Positions 2,547 through 7,973 of a DNA stretch of 64,000 nt are shown piece after piece (position 1 is the first letter of the stretch; every line of letters starts with the position of its first letter). Below the pieces are notes generated by a model, which did no database searches, was not told where the DNA came from, and saw nothing but the letters and a program-made list of their open reading frames with translations. A program made the position numbers and the translations under genes. The DNA comes from an uncultured Candidatus Binatia bacterium. GTDB taxonomy: Bacteria > Desulfobacterota > Binatia > UBA9968 > JAJDTQ01. The DNA lies in the NCBI GenBank assembly GCA_965213675.1, contig OZ243916.1, positions 544,001-608,000 of the forward strand, read 5' to 3'.

Positions 2547-3479
2547 TAGCAGGCCGTGGGAAAACGCGTAGATTTGAGCGTTTGTGAGAGAATCGATGGA
2601 AAAGCCGGCTTCAGGGCAAGGAGCAGAACTTGTTGCGCTGGCCATTTCAGGCCAACGAAGCCGGCGCAGACGCCCGGAGGCCATGGACGCATGCTCAACC
2701 TCCGACTCCCAGGGTACGCAGTCGCACCAGGTTGTAGACGGCGAAGGTGAGGGTGAACTGGAAGTCGACCTTGGCCAGGCCCCGGTGCTTGAGTTTGCGC
2801 ATGCCTCCGATGGTCTTGGCCCAGCCGAAGCCTTCCTCGATCCGTTTGCGGATGCGCTGGCTCACCGCGTAACCACGGTGACGGGTGGTGCGCCGGTCAA
2901 TGGCGGAACGCCGGCGGGTGTCGTTCTGGGCCACATGCGGACTGACGTTGGCGCAGCGCAGTCCCTCCACAAAGTCTTTTGTATCGTATCCCTTGTCCGC
3001 CCCGAGGGTGAGCCGATCGGCGCCGGGACGCGCCGCAATCATCGCCAAGCCCGCCTCGCGCTCAGCCCGGCCGCCGGCTTCGGTGGTACGGGTATCGACG
3101 ATCAGTCCATGGCGGTTATCCATCAACGCATGGCCCAGGTAGCACAGCTTCGCTTCCTGTCCCTGGCCCTTGCGGTACAGCCGTGCCTGCGGATCGGTGC
3201 TCGACTGGTGGGTCGCATTGCTGCGCTTCTCGCCGTGGAAGTCCGCCTCCGCATTGCGTCCGCCGCCACCAAGCCGTCCGCCTCCGTCTTTCGGCCGGAA
3301 CGACTTCATCGACGCCCACGCCTCCAGCAACGTCCCGTCCACGCTGAAGTGTTCATCCGACAAAAGGCGTCCTTCGCGGGCCTGGCCCAGTATCTGCCCG
3401 AAAAAGGCCCGCGCGATGTCCGACCCGATATCTTATTTACTCTTATCCGCGTCAGGCGGAGTTTTTCAACAACCTGCTA
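2547..3479 (-). mobile_element. Internally deleted IS (IS5/IS1182-like DDE element)
   Basis: Imperfect terminal IRs TAGCAGGCCGTGGGAAAA (2547) and TAGCAGGTTGTTGAAAAA (minus strand from 3479) flank a transposase C-terminal half. Confidence 0.8.
2695..3426 (-). pseudogene. IS5-family transposase, N-terminally truncated
   Basis: LLSDEHFSVDGTLLEAWASMKSF, TLGADKGYD, RKRIEEGFGWAK, AVYNLVRL motifs; homology stops ~3426 with no N-terminal domain. Confidence 0.85.
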
Positions 3480-3504: not shown

Positions 3505-3792
3505 CTACACCGTAATCCGTAACTGCATTCCCAAAGCCCGTGTGATCCGCATCACCGTGGCGAAGGTCGGATTGCCGTCCTGCGACAAAGCCTTGTAAAG
3601 ACCCTCCCGGCTCATTCCGATCTCTCGGGCCAGTCGGCTCATGTTTCCCGCCCGCACCATATCGTTCAGGGCGGCCCGGATCAGACTGCCATCGCCCGGA
3701 TCCTCTTCCGCGCATGCTTCCAGGTAAAGGCGCGCATCTTCCCGGGTCCGAAGCTGCTCCGTGACGTCCCATTTCGTGAAGGTTTCGGTCAT
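3505..3792 (-). CDS. Addiction module antidote protein (HI1420-like HTH antitoxin)
   Basis: MTETFTKWDVTEQLRT...YLEACAEED.GD..LIRAAL...MSRLAREIGMSREGLYKALSQDGNPTFATV; ATGA overlap with upstream toxin. Confidence 0.9.
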   Translation of the reverse strand: MTETFTKWDVTEQLRTREDARLYLEACAEEDPGDGSLIRAALNDMVRAGNMSRLAREIGMSREGLYKALSQDGNPTFATVMRITRALGMQLRITV

Positions 3793-4084
3793 GTCCGCCT
3801 CCAGTCCTTCGCCAACCGCTCGGCGCGTTCGATGTCGCGCTCCTGGCTGCCCTTGTCGCCTCCGCAGAGCACGACCACCGTCGACCCTCGCGGAGGAAAT
3901 ACAGGCGGTAGCCCGGTCCGTGATGTACGCGCATCTCAAACAGACCGCCGCCCACCGACTTCGCCTCCCCCGCATTGCCCAGCGAGAGGTTTCGCAGACG
4001 CGCGTTGATCCGTGCGACCGCAGTGCGGTCGCGCAAGCTACGAATCCAGCGCTTGAACGTCACGCTTTCTACTATCCGGATCAC
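3789..4084 (-). pseudogene. Addiction module killer protein (HI1419/RelE-like), frameshifted near 3880
   Basis: FKRWIRSLRDRTAVARINARL..LSLGNAGEAKSVGGGLFEMRVHHGPGYRLYF; C-terminal VVVLCGGDKGSQERDIERA lies in another frame. Confidence 0.85.
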
Positions 4085-4388: not shown

Positions 4389-5240
4389 CCCCATTTCATG
4401 GGCGCCGTCGTGCTCCAGCAGACGCAGTTTCCGACGGCGACGATCGAGCGCCGCATCGTGGTTGACGGCCAGCAGCGGCTCATCACGCTGTAGCTGCTTA
4501 TGGACGTAACCCAGGAGGTGCTTGAAGATCAGGAGCACTCTGGCCCCGCCAAGCGCTTGGCCGCGCTGGTGGCCAACGGCGAGGAATACCTGAACGAGAA
4601 CCCGAATCACGCCTTCAAGGTCTGGCCAACGACCGTCGACAGGGAAGCCTTTCGACATGCGATGAGCAACGAAATGACGCCTGCCAAATACGCGAATTCC
4701 CGAATCGTGCAGGCACACGAGTACTTCAAGGCGCAGGCGGAGCAATGGCTCGACCAGTTCCCGCGAGACACAGGGGAACGCGACAGCGCGGCTTCTGCTT
4801 TGGAAGTAGCTGTGAGCCGTAGTTTGGAGATCGTGGTCATCGACCTGGAAGAGTCCGACGAGCCACACATCATCTTCGAGACGTTGAATGCGCGCGGCAC
4901 GCTGCTACTCCAATCCGACATGGTCAAGAACAAGGTGCTGCACGAGGCGGGAATCGGGATCAGGAATGACGACGAGGAATCAACTCCCGAAGAGCGGAAC
5001 ATCTGGCCGCTCTTGAGAGCTTCCTGGTTCGACGGGTCGTGTGCGGATATAGCGCCAGGAGTTACGGAGAGCTCTTCGTTGGCCTGATTCGGAAGCTCGC
5101 GAAAGCACCGACGCGCGACGTCGACCGCGTCATCGTCTCCCATCTTGGAGAGCAGACCGCGCAGGCCGGACTGTGGCCTGGTGATGAGGAGTTACGCGAG
5201 AGATTCGTCAACGCGCCCCTCTACTCGTACCTGACACGTG
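4389..5240 (+). pseudogene. DUF262/DUF1524 (GmrSD-like) defence gene remnant
   Basis: PHFMGAVVL...IVVDGQQRLITL*LL (in-frame TAG 4491-4493)...IFETLNARG..L.QSDMVKN; frameshift ~5015 into FLVRR.VCGY...WPGDEE...PLY; no HNH tail. Confidence 0.85.
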
Positions 5241-5385
5241 TTAGCCGAGAGAGGGGGGAGGACGATGCGAGGACCGCCGTGTACCCGAACACGGGCCCGG
5301 GAAGTTTTGCCAAACCTCCCGCAAGGGGCCGGTCTTCCGCAGCGACGGCGCATCACCCAGGGCCATTCTGTTCAGCCGGTGGGGC

Positions 5386-6159
5386 CTACCAATCCGCCGG
5401 TTTGACTATCTTTGTTCCCGGTAGCGTTTCGGGAAACTGCGCCGCCCGCAGCATCGCGGGACGGATGTGGCGTACGTGGCTCGCGGCGTTCCGCAACTGT
5501 GAAGCGATCTGCCAACGGCCCGGACAGGCGACGAAGATCGGGCGTTTCAATTCCCCGGTGACCATACGAATCGGCACCACCAAGTCAGTGTCGTTCGACA
5601 CGACCACTGCCGCATCGAAAAGGTCCTTCCACGCGTCGTTAAGCAGGTGGGCGGCAAGATTCACGTCCGAGCCCTTCTCCTCCATCGTGTGGAACTCCGC
5701 GATCACGGCGTCCGGGAGGGGTATCCTCGTCCCGCGACCCCCGCCCTCGCGTTCGCCGTGTCTGTCGAGATAGAGGCCCACCGGCAGTGTCTGGGGCCGC
5801 TCCCCGAGCACCCGGTGGTCGCCTTCGGGGAGCGTGACCGGCCGAGGTGCATCGATCCGTCTACCAGCGACCGGGAGGTTGGCGAGAGGACGCCACGCGG
5901 TCTTGGCCAGGAAAGGCCCGTAATGGATCTCAACTTCTGGCGGGGTCACAAGCGCCTTCAGGTAAAGCTGCTGGCGAGCCGGCGCCTGTGGATCGAGCTT
6001 ACCGGAAACACGCGCCGTGAAGTAGCGAAGCCGGTCGATCGTGCACTCGCGGGGACGCAGAAGGGCGGTTAGCTTGACCGGGTCGAGCCACCTGAAGGGT
6101 GTCCCCTTAAGGGCTCCGTAGTACAGGTTGAAGCCATCGACATAGACCCTCGTCCTCAT
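5386..6159 (-). CDS. NYN domain (LabA/DUF88, PIN-like) putative ribonuclease
   Basis: MRTRVYVDGFNLYY, YFTA, EEKGSDVNLA, VVVSNDTDL: acidic NYN catalytic motifs intact; ATG at 6159. Confidence 0.9.
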   Translation of the reverse strand: MRTRVYVDGFNLYYGALKGTPFRWLDPVKLTALLRPRECTIDRLRYFTARVSGKLDPQAPARQQLYLKALVTPPEVEIHYGPFLAKTAWRPLANLPVAGRRIDAPRPVTLPEGDHRVLGERPQTLPVGLYLDRHGEREGGGRGTRIPLPDAVIAEFHTMEEKGSDVNLAAHLLNDAWKDLFDAAVVVSNDTDLVVPIRMVTGELKRPIFVACPGRWQIASQLRNAASHVRHIRPAMLRAAQFPETLPGTKIVKPADW

Positions 6160-6171
6160 GTCCGTCCCCAG

Positions 6172-6235
6172 AAAAAGCAAGGGCCGCTCTCCTGGAGCAG
6201 CCCTTGAGCCGACAGCACGCTGCCAGCGGGTAATT
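6172..6235 (-). ncRNA. Candidate ~65-nt structured leader/antitoxin RNA upstream of NYN gene
   Basis: Two hairpins (GCUGGCAG-cgug-CUGUCGGC; CAAGGGCUGCUC-cagga-GAGCGGCCCUUG) followed by CUUUUU; three G-U pairs form only on the minus strand. Confidence 0.55.
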
Positions 6236-6241
6236 CCGACA

Positions 6242-6270
6242 ACCTTACGACCATTCCGCCCAGCCCGCAA
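6242..6270 (-). promoter_or_regulatory. sigma70-like promoter TTGCGG-N17-TAAGGT upstream of the RNA/NYN unit
   Basis: 17-bp spacing; predicted start ~6235, just before the first hairpin. Confidence 0.5.
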
Positions 6271-6342
6271 GCGGTGGCCAGTCCGGTTTCCGTGCCTAAA
6301 GGGCCATGTCATGCTCGATGTTCTCGGCCCGCGCCCGAGATG

Positions 6343-6590
6343 CAATAAGCCGCCCAGTCATCCATCAGCCGACGGCGGCGTTGGACAGGTCCGTGCGACG
6401 AGATACGGTTTCGACTTGGTTGCGAGTCGTGTGTTCCAGCGCAGCATGCGCCACTTCGCACGGATGGTCCGTCTCTTCGGTCGTCCAATCCCAAACTCGA
6501 CTGGGAGCCGCGCGCCAAGGTCGCGATCTTCGACGCTCTGAAAAGTCCGGTATCGCCGCGCTCCCGAGTTGCCAGCCGTCTTTTGGCCAA
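6343..6590 (-). pseudogene. Tyrosine recombinase (P4-like integrase) C-terminal remnant
   Basis: Degenerate, frameshifted match to HGFRSSFRDW..EETDHP.EV...AL.H..RNQVE..Y.R.DL..RRR.LMDDWA.Y. Confidence 0.75.
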
Positions 6591-6836
6591 ACGGAACCAG
6601 CTTGATCGCGTCGGACTACACCCACGCCATCGGCCGCGAAGTTGAAGGCTTGTTTACTCAGGGTTTGAGCAGAATCTTTTCGACATTGCGAAACACTGCG
6701 CTGTTCCACCGCTCGTCTCGATGGTTCATCTGATTCATTTCCTGCGGAAACTGTCGGCTTTCTCGAAAAGGTTTCACCGGTCTTGGGGTCGTGGCCTTCG
6801 ACCCGCATGACCGATCTCCCGACTATCCTTCACCTG

Positions 6837-7973
6837 CTAGGGTGCCGCCTGGGCCAGCGGCGATACGTTCAGGTTGTAGAGCCGCGTCACGTTGGTGGTG
6901 AGCAGCTTGGCGCGGTCGCCGGCGTCGAGGCCGTTCATGTCGCGGGCAATGACGTCGCGGGAGTTGGGCCAAGTGGAATTCTGGTGCGGGTAGTCGTTGG
7001 ACCACATGCAGTTGTCGGCGCCCCACCAGGAGAACAGGCGGCCGCCGATGTGGTCGTTGAAGAAGGTGGCGTACACCTGCCGGTTGAAGTACTCGCTGGG
7101 GAGCTTGTCCATGGGCAGGGGCTGGGCGTGGCGATGGCGCCGGAAGTTCTTGTCGCACTGGCCGAGCCAGAAGGGCATCCAGCCGATTTCGTTCTCCACC
7201 GAGACGATCTTGAGGCTGGGATAGCGCTCAAGCGCCCCCGAGAAGATGATGTCGAAGAGCGCGTCTTCGATCTCGCGGGTCTGCTCCACGCCGATGCGGT
7301 AGCGCTTCATGCCCGTGGCAGTCTGGCGGTGCATGCTGTCGCCGAACCCCGTGAGGATGTGCAGGTGTACCGGCATGTCGAGGTCCTGGGATGCGGCCCA
7401 GTAGCGTTCGTAGTGATCGGAGGTAAAGGGCAGGTCGGGGTGGGGTACCTGCCAGATGAGAGTGCCGACCATGCCGGCCTTGCGGCAACGCTCCATCTCG
7501 GCCAGCGCATGGTCCATGTCGAACGCCGAGATCAGTGCGACCCCGAAGAGGCGGTCCGGCGCTCCTTGGCAATACTCGATGAGCCAGTCGTTGTAGGTGC
7601 GGAACAGGCCTTCCTGAAGCGCGGCGTCCTCCACGCAGAAGAACCCGAGTCCCAAGCTGGGATAGAGCACCTCGCCCGAGACGCCGTCGGTGGCCATGTC
7701 CTTGACGCGCTCCACCGGGTCCCAGCCGCCGGGACGCGCCACCGAGAAACCGGCGCGGCGGAAGTCCTCCACCTGCTCCGGGCGCTGGCCCGCCATGAAG
7801 AGCCCGCCCACGGCCTGCGGGATCACGTCCGGGCACCCGAACATCCAGGCGTCGCGTCCCTCGTCGAAGTAAGCCTTGGGCGCTCGGTCGCGCAAGGACG
7901 ACGGCAACCCCTTCTCCCAGAGGTCTGGAACCTCGATGACGTGCGAGTCTGCCGAAATGATGGCTTCTTCCAT
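6837..7973 (-). CDS. Amidohydrolase family protein (Amidohydro_2)
   Basis: ISADSHV, DGVSGEVLYPS, YNDWL, HLH, ENEIGW, WSNDYPH. Confidence 0.9.
   Translation of the reverse strand: MEEAIISADSHVIEVPDLWEKGLPSSLRDRAPKAYFDEGRDAWMFGCPDVIPQAVGGLFMAGQRPEQVEDFRRAGFSVARPGGWDPVERVKDMATDGVSGEVLYPSLGLGFFCVEDAALQEGLFRTYNDWLIEYCQGAPDRLFGVALISAFDMDHALAEMERCRKAGMVGTLIWQVPHPDLPFTSDHYERYWAASQDLDMPVHLHILTGFGDSMHRQTATGMKRYRIGVEQTREIEDALFDIIFSGALERYPSLKIVSVENEIGWMPFWLGQCDKNFRRHRHAQPLPMDKLPSEYFNRQVYATFFNDHIGGRLFSWWGADNCMWSNDYPHQNSTWPNSRDVIARDMNGLDAGDRAKLLTTNVTRLYNLNVSPLAQAAP

Follow-up and report, generated by a model that had tools for sequence, protein, structure and literature searches.

This study revealed that a NYN-domain nuclease gene of the HEC-09 family is preceded by a small structured RNA unit, and that the order promoter, RNA, intrinsic terminator and nuclease gene recurs in 77 of 80 homologous loci as well as in the window, i.e. 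the whole 64,000-nt stretch of DNA from an uncultured Candidatus Binatia bacterium that was analysed. We put at roughly 50% the probability that the pair forms a type III-like toxin-antitoxin or defence module, in which the RNA would restrain the nuclease in trans while the terminator would throttle NYN transcription. Whatever its function, the RNA is, as judged from comparative sequence analysis, a well-supported new structured RNA family.

The elements identified in the window are listed in Table 1. The promoter TTGCGG-N17-TAAGGT, the 8-bp and 12-bp hairpins, the CUUUUU run and the ATG codon 12 nt further on were all found on the minus strand at the places where the initial annotation had put them.

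Table 1. Elements of the RNA-NYN locus, with their positions in the window
Feature	Position	Strand	Basis
-35 box TTGCGG	6270-6265	minus	sequence; positional homologue of the -35 boxes in 77 other units
-10 box TAAGGT	6247-6242	minus	sequence; spaced 17 nt from the -35 box; its last base 7 nt ahead of RNA model position 1
Predicted small RNA, type 1, ~64 nt	6235-6172	minus	covariance model and RNAfold; both ends predicted
Hairpin 1: 8 bp, CGUG loop, two G.U pairs	6227-6208	minus	sequence and RNAfold
Hairpin 2: 12 bp, G+C-rich, one U.G pair	6206-6178	minus	sequence and RNAfold
Intrinsic terminator: hairpin 2 and CUUUUU (6177-6172)	6206-6172	minus	fold and terminator scan
Spacer of 12 nt with ribosome-binding site GGGGA (6169-6165)	6171-6160	minus	sequence
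NYN-domain nuclease gene, 257 aa	6159-5386	minus	ATG 6159-6157, stop 5388-5386

Within the predicted RNA, a C-rich 5' end is followed by hairpin 1, a one-base linker, the terminator hairpin and the U-run. The nuclease gene encodes a long form of the HEC-09 family with an insertion of ~50 aa. The gene upstream of the unit is an amidohydrolase gene. A 147-aa frame upstream of the promoter (6365-6808), which has no match in Pfam, NCBIfam or PADLOC, was treated as non-coding, and no tandem repeats were found between positions 5300 and 6900.

With regard to transcription, the window promoter is weak, its two boxes agreeing with the consensus at 6 of 12 positions, and a sigma-70 scan returned no promoter at this locus by its own criteria. 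Across loci, the mean match is 8.7/12 in the units as opposed to 5.8/12 in 380 control windows, and the distance to the RNA is fixed. As the end of the -10 box precedes the RNA by 5-7 nt in 57 of 78 units, the transcription start in the window is predicted at ~6234-6236, which agrees with the start at ~6235 proposed initially. Among sequencing runs searched for positions 5386-6400, no RNA run was listed. A terminator scan of 3 kb gave the window hairpin as the sole site, where 2.3 sites are expected from shuffled sequences, so the terminator call alone does not rise above chance. The feature as a whole stands far above chance, because the unit is conserved at the equivalent place in 77 of the 80 homologous loci and covaries.

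The structure of the RNA was found to be strongly conserved. Model R1 matches the window at 6234-6170 on the minus strand with 81 bits (E 1.4e-21), and RNAfold predicts precisely the two hairpins of Table 1, with a minimum free energy of -42.2 kcal/mol (z = -2.43; 4 of 200 shuffles equally stable). Both hairpins are present in the minimum-energy and in the centroid fold of the window RNA, and neither of these two folds contains a competing antiterminator pairing. In the alignment of 28 type 1 sequences (A1), 99.6% of the cells are paired and both sides have changed in 12 of 20 pairs; none of 500 shuffles scored as high, and slid controls reached at most 50.4% paired cells. Changes on both sides affect 5 of 8 pairs of hairpin 1, where 100% of the cells are paired, and 7 of 12 pairs of the terminator hairpin (99.4% paired). 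The 34 type 2 sequences (A3) exhibit 91.8% paired cells, with changes on both sides in 16 of 20 pairs. A two-hairpin leader that is conserved and covaries across phyla precedes the NYN homologs; its absence had been named in the initial annotation as a result that would refute its reading. The same annotation had noted that the wobble pairs form on the sense strand only, and this pattern extends to the family: the ratio of G.U to A.C cells is 64:0 in type 1 and 53:10 in type 2. This excess indicates that the structure is a property of the sense-strand RNA.

In type 1, parts of hairpin 1 are constrained in their sequence and not in their pairing alone. The two pairs that close the loop never vary, most columns of the loop hardly do, and one pair is G.U in 23 of 28 sequences and A-U in the other 5, never G-C. 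This double constraint suggests specific recognition by a protein. The RNA alignments contain no variable, guide-like segment. No Rfam 15 family, the abiF motif and the rne leader included, matched the window between 4500 and 7500 at E <= 1. At 10 other loci, Rfam gave five weak matches, of which only Moco in L066 overlaps the unit, with 22.4 bits against a gathering threshold of 36.

The linkage between RNA and nuclease is tight. A match to the RNA model lies directly upstream of NYN, on the same strand, in 77 of the 80 loci, which come from many phyla; two of the remaining three are cut by contig ends and the third, L044, is ambiguous. In L044 the match lies on the opposite strand and its hairpin is nearly palindromic, for which reason this locus was not counted as a separate layout. 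At most one of 78 assessable genome loci has an intact NYN gene without a same-strand RNA match directly upstream. Among distant plasmid homologs with 26-39% identity, found in E. coli, Klebsiella, Xanthomonas and Phaeobacter, a two-hairpin unit was present in all four cases looked at; that of Klebsiella and Xanthomonas counts as a type apart from types 1 and 2. The other loci have short G-rich spacers comparable to that of the window; G-rich ribosome sites are not universal among them. No conserved protein neighbour was found within 3 kb on either side across the 80 loci, which bears out the earlier remark that no protein antitoxin adjoins the nuclease.

The NYN protein itself has its catalytic residues intact. 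Pfam NYN (PF01936) is the only Pfam domain found in it, at 26.3 bits against a cut-off of 24.2, and the PADLOC HEC-09 model (PDLC04163) matches with E 2.5e-39. NCBIfam holds no family for the protein or its neighbours, and a sequence-profile search of the PDB gave just two chance-level matches (E ~0.35). In a structural comparison of the AlphaFold2 model (pLDDT 85.7), the best Foldseek match was 2qip (E 1.7e-7), and NYN domains of MARF1 were matched with E 1e-4 to 6e-4. Seven acidic residues, D8, E160, E161, D165, D175, D190 and D192, are invariant in all 35 aligned homologs, in keeping with the intact acidic motifs noted in the initial annotation.

The module is widespread and mobile. At least 7,687 related proteins came up in a word-indexed search and at least 513 relatives in the genome collection, and 401 plasmid records and 59 viral contigs carry the family. 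Cultured bacteria among the carriers are Phaeobacter piscinae pP18_h (L090), Tepidicaulis marinus (L033) and Granulicella tundricola (H1). Within the genus, 10 of 28 genomes have the module, a patchy distribution; the source genome of the window has three modules, and the one in the window lies within a defence and toxin-antitoxin island that has decayed. Transfer between phyla involves RNA and NYN jointly, with ~80% protein identity and a nearly unchanged RNA.

The RNA was also found in arrangements other than the common one. RNA and NYN diverge in L107, L112, L114 and L136, and in L143, L145 and L146 they converge with their tails facing each other; these layouts stem from only a handful of lineages, namely one family of relatives, L136 and a single prophage lineage. 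Arrays of two units were seen only in L065, L125 and L087, and the tandem units of L065 each have their own promoter. Among 28 places of type 2 RNA in relatives, NYN is intact downstream in 9, divergent in 3, reduced to remnants in 4, absent in 10 and doubtful in 2. Among 11 type 1 places in the genus, NYN is intact in 2 and otherwise frameshifted, truncated, stopped, degenerate or gone, with the reservation that some frameshifts may be assembly errors of metagenome-assembled genomes. Four of five genomes searched (completeness 83-100%) carry structured orphan units and no detectable NYN homolog. The orphan units L020 and L080 have kept their structure through compensatory changes and have no gene downstream. 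Other units precede different genes: an MNT-HEPN operon 44 nt away in L115, Fic genes in L079 and L080, and integrase genes in L035 (a tyrosine integrase) and L104. One family of relatives has the unit flanked by a small HTH gene on one side and an integrase on the other, whether NYN is present or absent (L104, L109, L114), and duplications of promoter plus RNA flank inserted genes in L020, L035 and L076. On this comparative evidence, the RNA is best regarded as a gene of its own that outlasts the decay of NYN.

These observations can be accommodated by the following mechanism. The module would consist of an RNA of ~65 nt, with its own promoter and a strong intrinsic terminator, paired with the HEC-09 NYN-fold ribonuclease. 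The RNA would be made in excess, and its two stable hairpins would leave almost no single-stranded substrate. Hairpin 1 and the C-rich 5' end may bind the NYN protein and keep the nuclease inactive, in the manner of a type III antitoxin. In the tandem layout, the terminator would pass only rare read-through into the NYN frame, so that the RNA would always outnumber the enzyme. If the supply or stability of the RNA dropped, for example upon phage shut-off of host transcription or plasmid loss, the freed nuclease would be expected to cut cellular or phage RNA. The initial annotation had offered two possibilities, a nuclease restrained by a small RNA and an autoregulatory attenuator. The comparative data lean towards the former because of the opposite-strand layouts, the orphans and arrays, and the persistence of the RNA after NYN decay. 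A pure antitoxin role nevertheless does not account for the orphan RNAs in NYN-free genomes, and the units ahead of other genes are equally compatible with a cassette for generic control in cis or with a mobile-element RNA.

The alternative that survives best, although we consider it unlikely, is that the RNA acts purely in cis. The hairpins would then be the 5' UTR of the NYN mRNA, the terminator would attenuate, and the short RNA would be a by-product; binding or cutting of hairpin 1, by the NYN protein or by some factor of the host or of a phage, would set the NYN level. This agrees with the same-strand position in 77 of 80 loci and with the distance of 10-25 nt, including a ribosome-binding site, between U-run and start codon, on account of which NYN must be read through the terminator. 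As the spacer has no room for a separate NYN promoter, the terminator must to some extent act in cis in the common layout, and this could there be the whole story. The U-runs may be perfect or, in some alphaproteobacterial copies, degenerate, as would be seen if read-through were subject to tuning, and the position of the L115 unit ahead of the MNT-HEPN operon is likewise as expected of a leader. However, an RNA encoded on the strand opposite to NYN, as in the four divergent and three convergent loci, cannot be a leader there. The separate promoters of the tandem units in L065, and the compensatory changes by which the orphans L020 and L080 keep their structure with no downstream gene, are also at odds with a leader. 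Moreover, near-consensus promoters that run into a strong terminator would be wasteful for mere silencing, and the minimum-energy fold, considered by itself, has no antiterminator pairing to compete with the terminator.

It is rather improbable that the RNA is instead a positive partner of the nuclease, be it as a cofactor for structure, as an RNA that confers specificity or acts as a sensor, or as a substrate that the enzyme processes, so that the active unit would be a ribonucleoprotein. The linkage that holds whatever the orientation, the lack of any other conserved component and the sequence constraint on hairpin 1 of type 1 would all suit such a partnership. Against it, the RNA has no guide-like variable segment, and a cofactor would be expected to decay with NYN, yet this RNA outlasts NYN and occurs in NYN-free genomes.

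The orphans in NYN-free genomes can also be read as a sign that the RNA primarily belongs to mobile elements, as a regulatory or antisense RNA or as a tRNA-like integration target of integrase islands, with NYN as a frequent passenger. The units between HTH gene and integrase with NYN optional, the unit ahead of the tyrosine integrase in L035 and the duplications around inserted genes point in the same direction. We nevertheless assign this explanation only a small probability. A related integrase was found within 3 kb at just 3 of the 80 NYN loci, RNA and NYN move jointly between phyla, and small plasmids carry the module and little else, such as a 3.4-kb E. coli plasmid with two annotated features. 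In addition, the wobble asymmetry indicates an RNA rather than a DNA site. Finally, a terminator that arose by chance or that serves the amidohydrolase gene, next to a palindrome and unrelated to NYN, would fit the terminator count and the weak promoter of the window. This explanation has a negligible probability, as it is already refuted by covariation and by the recurrence of the unit before NYN genes whose neighbours are otherwise unrelated (77 of 80 loci).

Returning to the RNA as a restraint on the nuclease, the broadest form of this proposal, which we hold tentatively and at slightly under even odds, is that a NYN/PIN-like nuclease may here form the core of an RNA-antitoxin or RNA-gated system, which would be the first of its kind. 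Such modules would make up a class of type III-like toxin-antitoxin or defence systems that is both new and very widespread; their RNA, an uncatalogued two-hairpin family with at least three subtypes, would act in trans in any orientation and persist as an orphan 'immunity' RNA after loss of the toxin. If this is true, RNA-based toxin control extends to the PIN-like superfamily, and the carriage of a solitary, catalytically intact nuclease gene by so many elements is explained. Regardless of function, the RNA is a marker for annotating NYN modules and a candidate for Rfam-type catalogues. No account of an RNA that partners NYN genes turned up in the openly searchable literature, subscription journals and supplementary tables (e.g. 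those of large RNA-motif surveys) aside.

With regard to known systems, the leaders of the E. coli rne, rnc and pnp genes autoregulate their ribonuclease genes, and the NYN unit resembles them as a conserved hairpin ahead of a ribonuclease gene that is a possible target of its own enzyme. These leaders are not known to have a strong terminator right before the start codon or to occur as separate, opposite-strand or orphan genes, features that the NYN unit shows.

The type III loci ToxIN, CptIN and TenpIN have the order promoter, RNA, terminator and endoribonuclease. The NYN module shares with them this gene order, the absence of a protein antitoxin, the carriage by plasmids and phages, the patchy distribution and, in a few loci (L065, L125, L087), two tandem RNA units. 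To our knowledge, the only type III toxins known are ToxN-like, plus the recent AbiF case. ToxI, CptI and TenpI are defined by tandem direct RNA repeats, whereas the window RNA is one two-hairpin unit with no direct-repeat array. The nuclease fold is NYN (PIN-like) and not ToxN/AbiQ, according to Pfam and the structural matches to 2qip and MARF1. Both the single unit and the fold speak against an antitoxin reading. A further difference is that the RNA of the NYN module lies on the opposite strand in some lineages. It is in its layout that the module resembles ToxIN; it is not a member of that family.

The window NYN belongs to the same protein family as HEC-09, according to the PADLOC HEC-09 model. 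HEC-09 is an Hma-embedded candidate defence gene whose NYN domain resembles MARF1 and has conserved aspartates (Payne et al., bioRxiv 10.1101/2024.01.29.577857). A representative cloned along with what is presumed to be its native promoter region did not protect against any of the phages used, and the passages of that preprint on HEC-09 treat it as a single protein gene and do not mention an RNA (Payne et al., bioRxiv 10.1101/2024.01.29.577857). The negative phage result counts against the proposed module. If the proposed restraint by RNA is correct, HEC-09 gains its missing second component, which bears on the negative phage test and on the design of cloning and assays.

A parallel to the proposed mechanism is offered by AbiF and RCd22 (abiF motif) of a Clostridioides difficile prophage. 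In this pair, described as type III-like, the upstream structured RNA is reported to neutralise an RNase-type toxin by direct binding, in cis as well as in trans (bioRxiv 10.1101/2025.04.15.648962). The toxins differ, NYN in one case and an Abi_2/HEPN-like protein in the other, and the abiF Rfam motif has no match here. What the two modules share is that a structured non-coding RNA precedes a nuclease, predicted in the case of NYN, that is not of the ToxN kind. To the extent of that account, AbiF/RCd22 is a precedent that counts in favour of RNA restraint in the NYN module.

This analysis revealed that the NYN nuclease gene of the window is preceded by a predicted small two-hairpin RNA with its own promoter and terminator. 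The minus-strand layout described in the initial annotation (promoter, two hairpins, CUUUUU, 12-nt spacer and ATG) matched the sequence element by element, and the observation as a whole was confirmed by sequence reading, folding and homologous loci. RNAfold returned both hairpins of the window's unit exactly (-42.2 kcal/mol, z = -2.43, equalled by 4 of 200 shuffles); taken alone, this fold energy is weak evidence for an RNA. A terminator scan gave one site versus 2.3 from shuffles, and a sigma-70 promoter scan gave none by its own criteria. No tandem repeats were found at the locus and no Rfam match to its RNA at E values up to 1.

Features of the RNA-NYN locus, its surroundings and the two further RNA units of the window's own genome (G000)
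Feature	Position	Strand	Basis
-35 box TTGCGG	6270-6265	minus	sequence
-10 box TAAGGT, 17 nt past TTGCGG	6247-6242	minus	sequence
C-rich RNA start UUACCC		minus	sequence
Hairpin 1: 8 bp, CGUG loop, two G.U pairs	6227-6208	minus	sequence, RNAfold
Linker between hairpins, one unpaired U		minus	sequence
G+C-rich hairpin: 12 bp, one U.G pair	6206-6178	minus	sequence, RNAfold
U-run CUUUUU	6177-6172	minus	sequence
Spacer of 12 nt with GGGGA, between CUUUUU and NYN ATG		minus	sequence
NYN gene, 257 aa	ATG at 6159, end at 5386	minus	open frame, Pfam, PADLOC
GmrSD_N (DUF262) fragment, 195 aa, last part of domain only	4500-5087	plus	
DDE transposase fragment	2695-3363	minus	
HI1420-type addiction-module antidote gene	3505-3975	minus	
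Amidohydrolase-like gene	6837-7973		
Type 2 RNA unit L002/L085	G000:C1:2975974-2976035		
Type 2 RNA unit L086	G000:C1:2645699-2645762		

At least 7,687 related proteins were identified at E values up to 0.001 among 8,000 scored candidates, and a species-level genome collection held at least 513 loci with NYN relatives, the best 80 of which formed the comparative set. These 80 span Acidobacteriota, Alpha- and Gammaproteobacteria, Nitrospirota, Gemmatimonadota, Chloroflexota, Verrucomicrobiota, Planctomycetota, Bacteroidota, Nitrospinota and others; as NYN identity reaches 79% between phyla, horizontal transfer is indicated. Read locus by locus, the 150-160 nt upstream of the NYN homologs showed one architecture throughout: promoter, C-rich 5' end, hairpin 1, short linker, G+C-rich hairpin, U-run, ribosome site and start. 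Two sequence subtypes were found, namely type 1, to which the window's RNA with its CGUG loop belongs, and type 2, mostly with UUCG loops. In their alignments (A1, 28 type 1 sequences; A3, 34 type 2 sequences), standard pairs filled 99.6% and 91.8% of the paired cells, and both sides had changed at 12 and 16 of the 20 pairs, respectively, so that the covariation of the upstream leader proposed for checking in the initial annotation was positive. The observed values were reached by 0 of 500 shuffles of A1; for A3 this was 0 of 500 on four measures and 2 of 500 on pair types. At most 50.4% (A1) and 53.6% (A3) of cells were paired in slid controls. G.U cells numbered 64 versus 0 A.C cells in A1 and 53 versus 10 in A3, an excess which assigns the structure to the transcript of the NYN strand rather than to a DNA palindrome and bears out the earlier argument from sense-strand wobble pairs.

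Of the 80 loci, 77 had a match to the covariance models of the two types (R1 and R2) directly upstream of NYN and on its strand. Two others have lost this region to contig ends (L024, L062), and L044 is ambiguous, with a near-palindromic hairpin and a model match on the opposite strand. Across 78 units, the best -35/-10 match averaged 8.7/12 versus 5.8/12 in 380 control windows, with the -10 box ending 5-7 nt ahead of the first model position in 57. The window's promoter is among the weakest (6/12), yet stands at the homologous position. A two-hairpin unit also precedes distant plasmid NYN homologs (26-39% identity), examined on a 3.4-kb E. coli plasmid, a Klebsiella plasmid, Xanthomonas pXap41 and Phaeobacter pP18_h. 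Hairpin 1 takes a third, shared form on the plasmids of Klebsiella and Xanthomonas (L088, L089): it is longer, carries a common AUUAAGUU loop segment and leads into a strong terminator, which probably makes this a third subtype of the RNA. The name given to the protein in some records, 6-hydroxy-3-succinoylpyridine 3-monooxygenase HspA, looks like a misleading annotation of a NYN protein. At 10 further loci, no unit had an above-threshold Rfam match, the sole overlapping one being a sub-threshold Moco in L066, and nothing in Rfam 15 matched the RNA family.

The nuclease of the window belongs to the NYN/HEC-09 family. It scored just above the Pfam NYN threshold (26.3 versus 24.2 bits), and the PADLOC model for HEC-09, a candidate defence gene, matched it with an E value of 2.5e-39. 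Its AlphaFold2 model (pLDDT 85.7), built from a 35-sequence alignment, had VPA0982 (2qip) and the NYN domains of mouse and human MARF1 as top structural matches, and D8, E160, E161, D165, D175, D190 and D192 are unchanged in 35 of 35 homologs. An insertion of about 50 residues, where model confidence is low, makes the protein a long form. According to passages on HEC-09 by Payne et al. (bioRxiv 10.1101/2024.01.29.577857), a representative cloned with its putative native promoter region gave no protection against any phage tested; an RNA goes unmentioned in these passages.

Convergent with NYN, the GmrSD_N fragment also matches PADLOC HEC-06/Orf5 and type IV restriction models (about 550-630 positions) and, judged by these matches, looks like the remnant of a truncated GmrSD/BrxU-like restriction gene. 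Together with the transposase fragment and the antidote gene, it makes the neighbourhood look like a decaying mobile, defence and toxin-antitoxin island. The frame just upstream of the antidote gene (to 4111) had no Pfam match. The approximately 570 nt between the amidohydrolase-like gene and the RNA promoter (6271-6836, minus strand) contain no recognisable gene; a 147-aa frame at 6365-6808 had no match in Pfam, NCBIfam or PADLOC.

The initial annotation saw no protein antitoxin beside the nuclease, and none is conserved within 3 kb on either side across the 80 loci. When open frames of at least 70 aa in these regions were clustered, only the NYN cluster spanned all 80 loci and the remaining neighbour clusters covered five at most, so the module consists of the RNA and NYN. 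Two clusters were rejected as partners: one of 69 loci, comprising antisense frames within the NYN gene, and one of five loci, an out-of-frame reading across the unit and the NYN start.

Orientation, arrays, orphan copies and asymmetric decay show that the RNA is more than a 5' leader and is a gene of its own. In three genomes of the window's order (L107, L112, L114) and in the viral contig L136, the unit, with its own promoter, is divergent from NYN, on the opposite strand and about 65-70 nt from its start. It is convergent in three near-identical prophage contigs (L143, L145, L146), where the stop codon of NYN directly adjoins the U-run. Two units with separate promoters occur in L065, two tandem units precede NYN in L125 and on the E. 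coli plasmid L087, and L035 carries an additional unit besides the NYN-linked one. In L020 and L080, the extra units are not followed by NYN, and compensatory changes relative to the NYN-linked copy of the same locus maintain their structure. Four of five orphan-unit genomes searched have no detectable NYN homolog at 83-100% completeness, and the fifth has a weak match only (E 4e-8). An RNA acting purely in cis, as a leader of NYN, is a reading that the opposite-strand layouts and the orphan units weaken, and we consider it unlikely.

Two loci show rearrangements involving the unit. In L020 (634-2993), an inverted insert of two genes, one for a Macro-domain protein and one for a 341-aa product unmatched in Pfam, is bracketed by two units; no gene follows the upstream unit, which retains both stems through compensatory changes. 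In L076 (837-1090 and 2704-3017), an approximately 250-bp duplication of promoter, RNA and first NYN codons flanks about 1.8 kb of inserted DNA, and the first copy thus runs into a truncated NYN start.

R2 matched in 28 of 151 related genomes. At the 28 type 2 places outside the window's genome, full-length NYN lies directly downstream in 9 and divergently in 3, remnants alone are left in 4 (L095, L101, L102, L113), no NYN occurs within 1.5 kb in 10 (one of them, L106, in an unpublished genome), and 2 are doubtful matches. Of 28 genomes in the genus, 10 had type 1 units by R1; NYN at the 11 places outside the window's genome is intact in 2, frameshifted in 2 (some frameshifts may be assembly errors), truncated in 1, interrupted by an in-frame stop in 1, degenerate in 1, reduced to its start in 1 and missing in 3. 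The window's genome holds three modules, the window's being intact and two of type 2 having disrupted NYN frames. The latter (L002/L085, L086) are broken by a mid-gene frame change or deletion, and L086 and the related L049 have ATC instead of ATG at the NYN start position. Of 78 assessable genome loci, at most 1 has an intact NYN that lacks a same-strand RNA match directly upstream. Viral contigs provided 46 assessable full-length loci: such a match is present in 38 (9 of these being weak matches to a variant unit, about 37 nt long), the RNA is on the opposite strand in 4, and an R1/R2 match is absent in 4, one of which (L150) visibly folds into the same architecture. The antidote of a harmful gene is expected to show this pattern, with the RNA present whenever NYN is intact and often outliving it. 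That the RNA is instead a positive cofactor of NYN is improbable, being weakened by this asymmetric decay.

Within one related family, units are flanked by a small HTH gene on one side and a tyrosine integrase on the other, whether NYN is present or not, and in L035 a single unit precedes an Arm-type integrase. L115 (1501-2336) has a single diverged unit with a weak U-run 44 nt before an MNT-HEPN pair (Pfam NTP_transf_2 and HEPN). In L079 (2187-3277) and L080 (5518-6497), a second unit lies 1.2-2.5 kb downstream of the NYN module, and a Fic/DOC-family gene 300-420 nt beyond it. Given these contexts and the NYN-free orphans, the RNA may have functions beyond NYN, either tied to mobile elements or as a general control cassette. 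An RNA of mobile elements with NYN as a passenger is nevertheless very unlikely, as RNA and NYN are co-transferred on minimal plasmids and integrases are rare.

Other arrangements were also seen. L080 has an HTH antidote-like gene between its two units. In one related family, comprising L107 (1225-2254), L112, L114, L104 and L109, the spacer that separates a small Xre-type HTH gene from either NYN or a tyrosine integrase carries the unit in antisense; transcription reading through from the HTH gene would yield an RNA complementary to the small one, a type I-like geometry.

We assign a probability of about one half to a type III-like module in which the small RNA silences the NYN nuclease in trans. 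The strong promoter at a fixed place and the strong terminator would yield an abundant, almost fully double-stranded RNA, which would bind and silence the nuclease; in the tandem layout, the terminator would restrict NYN transcription to read-through. The RNA's structure, conservation, linkage to NYN and independence, as shown here, support part of the interpretation in the initial annotation; its function is what we infer.

Our literature search, with supplements and subscription journals outside its scope, found no paper in which NYN genes are linked to a partner RNA. AbiF with RCd22 comes closest as a precedent: according to a preprint (bioRxiv 10.1101/2025.04.15.648962), AbiF, an RNase of non-ToxN type, is neutralised in cis and in trans by a structured RNA encoded upstream. 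Tests for two defining features of ToxIN, CptIN and TenpIN, the toxin fold and the repeat array, found neither, which places the RNA-NYN module outside these families; it has the same layout as they do and plausibly follows the same logic.
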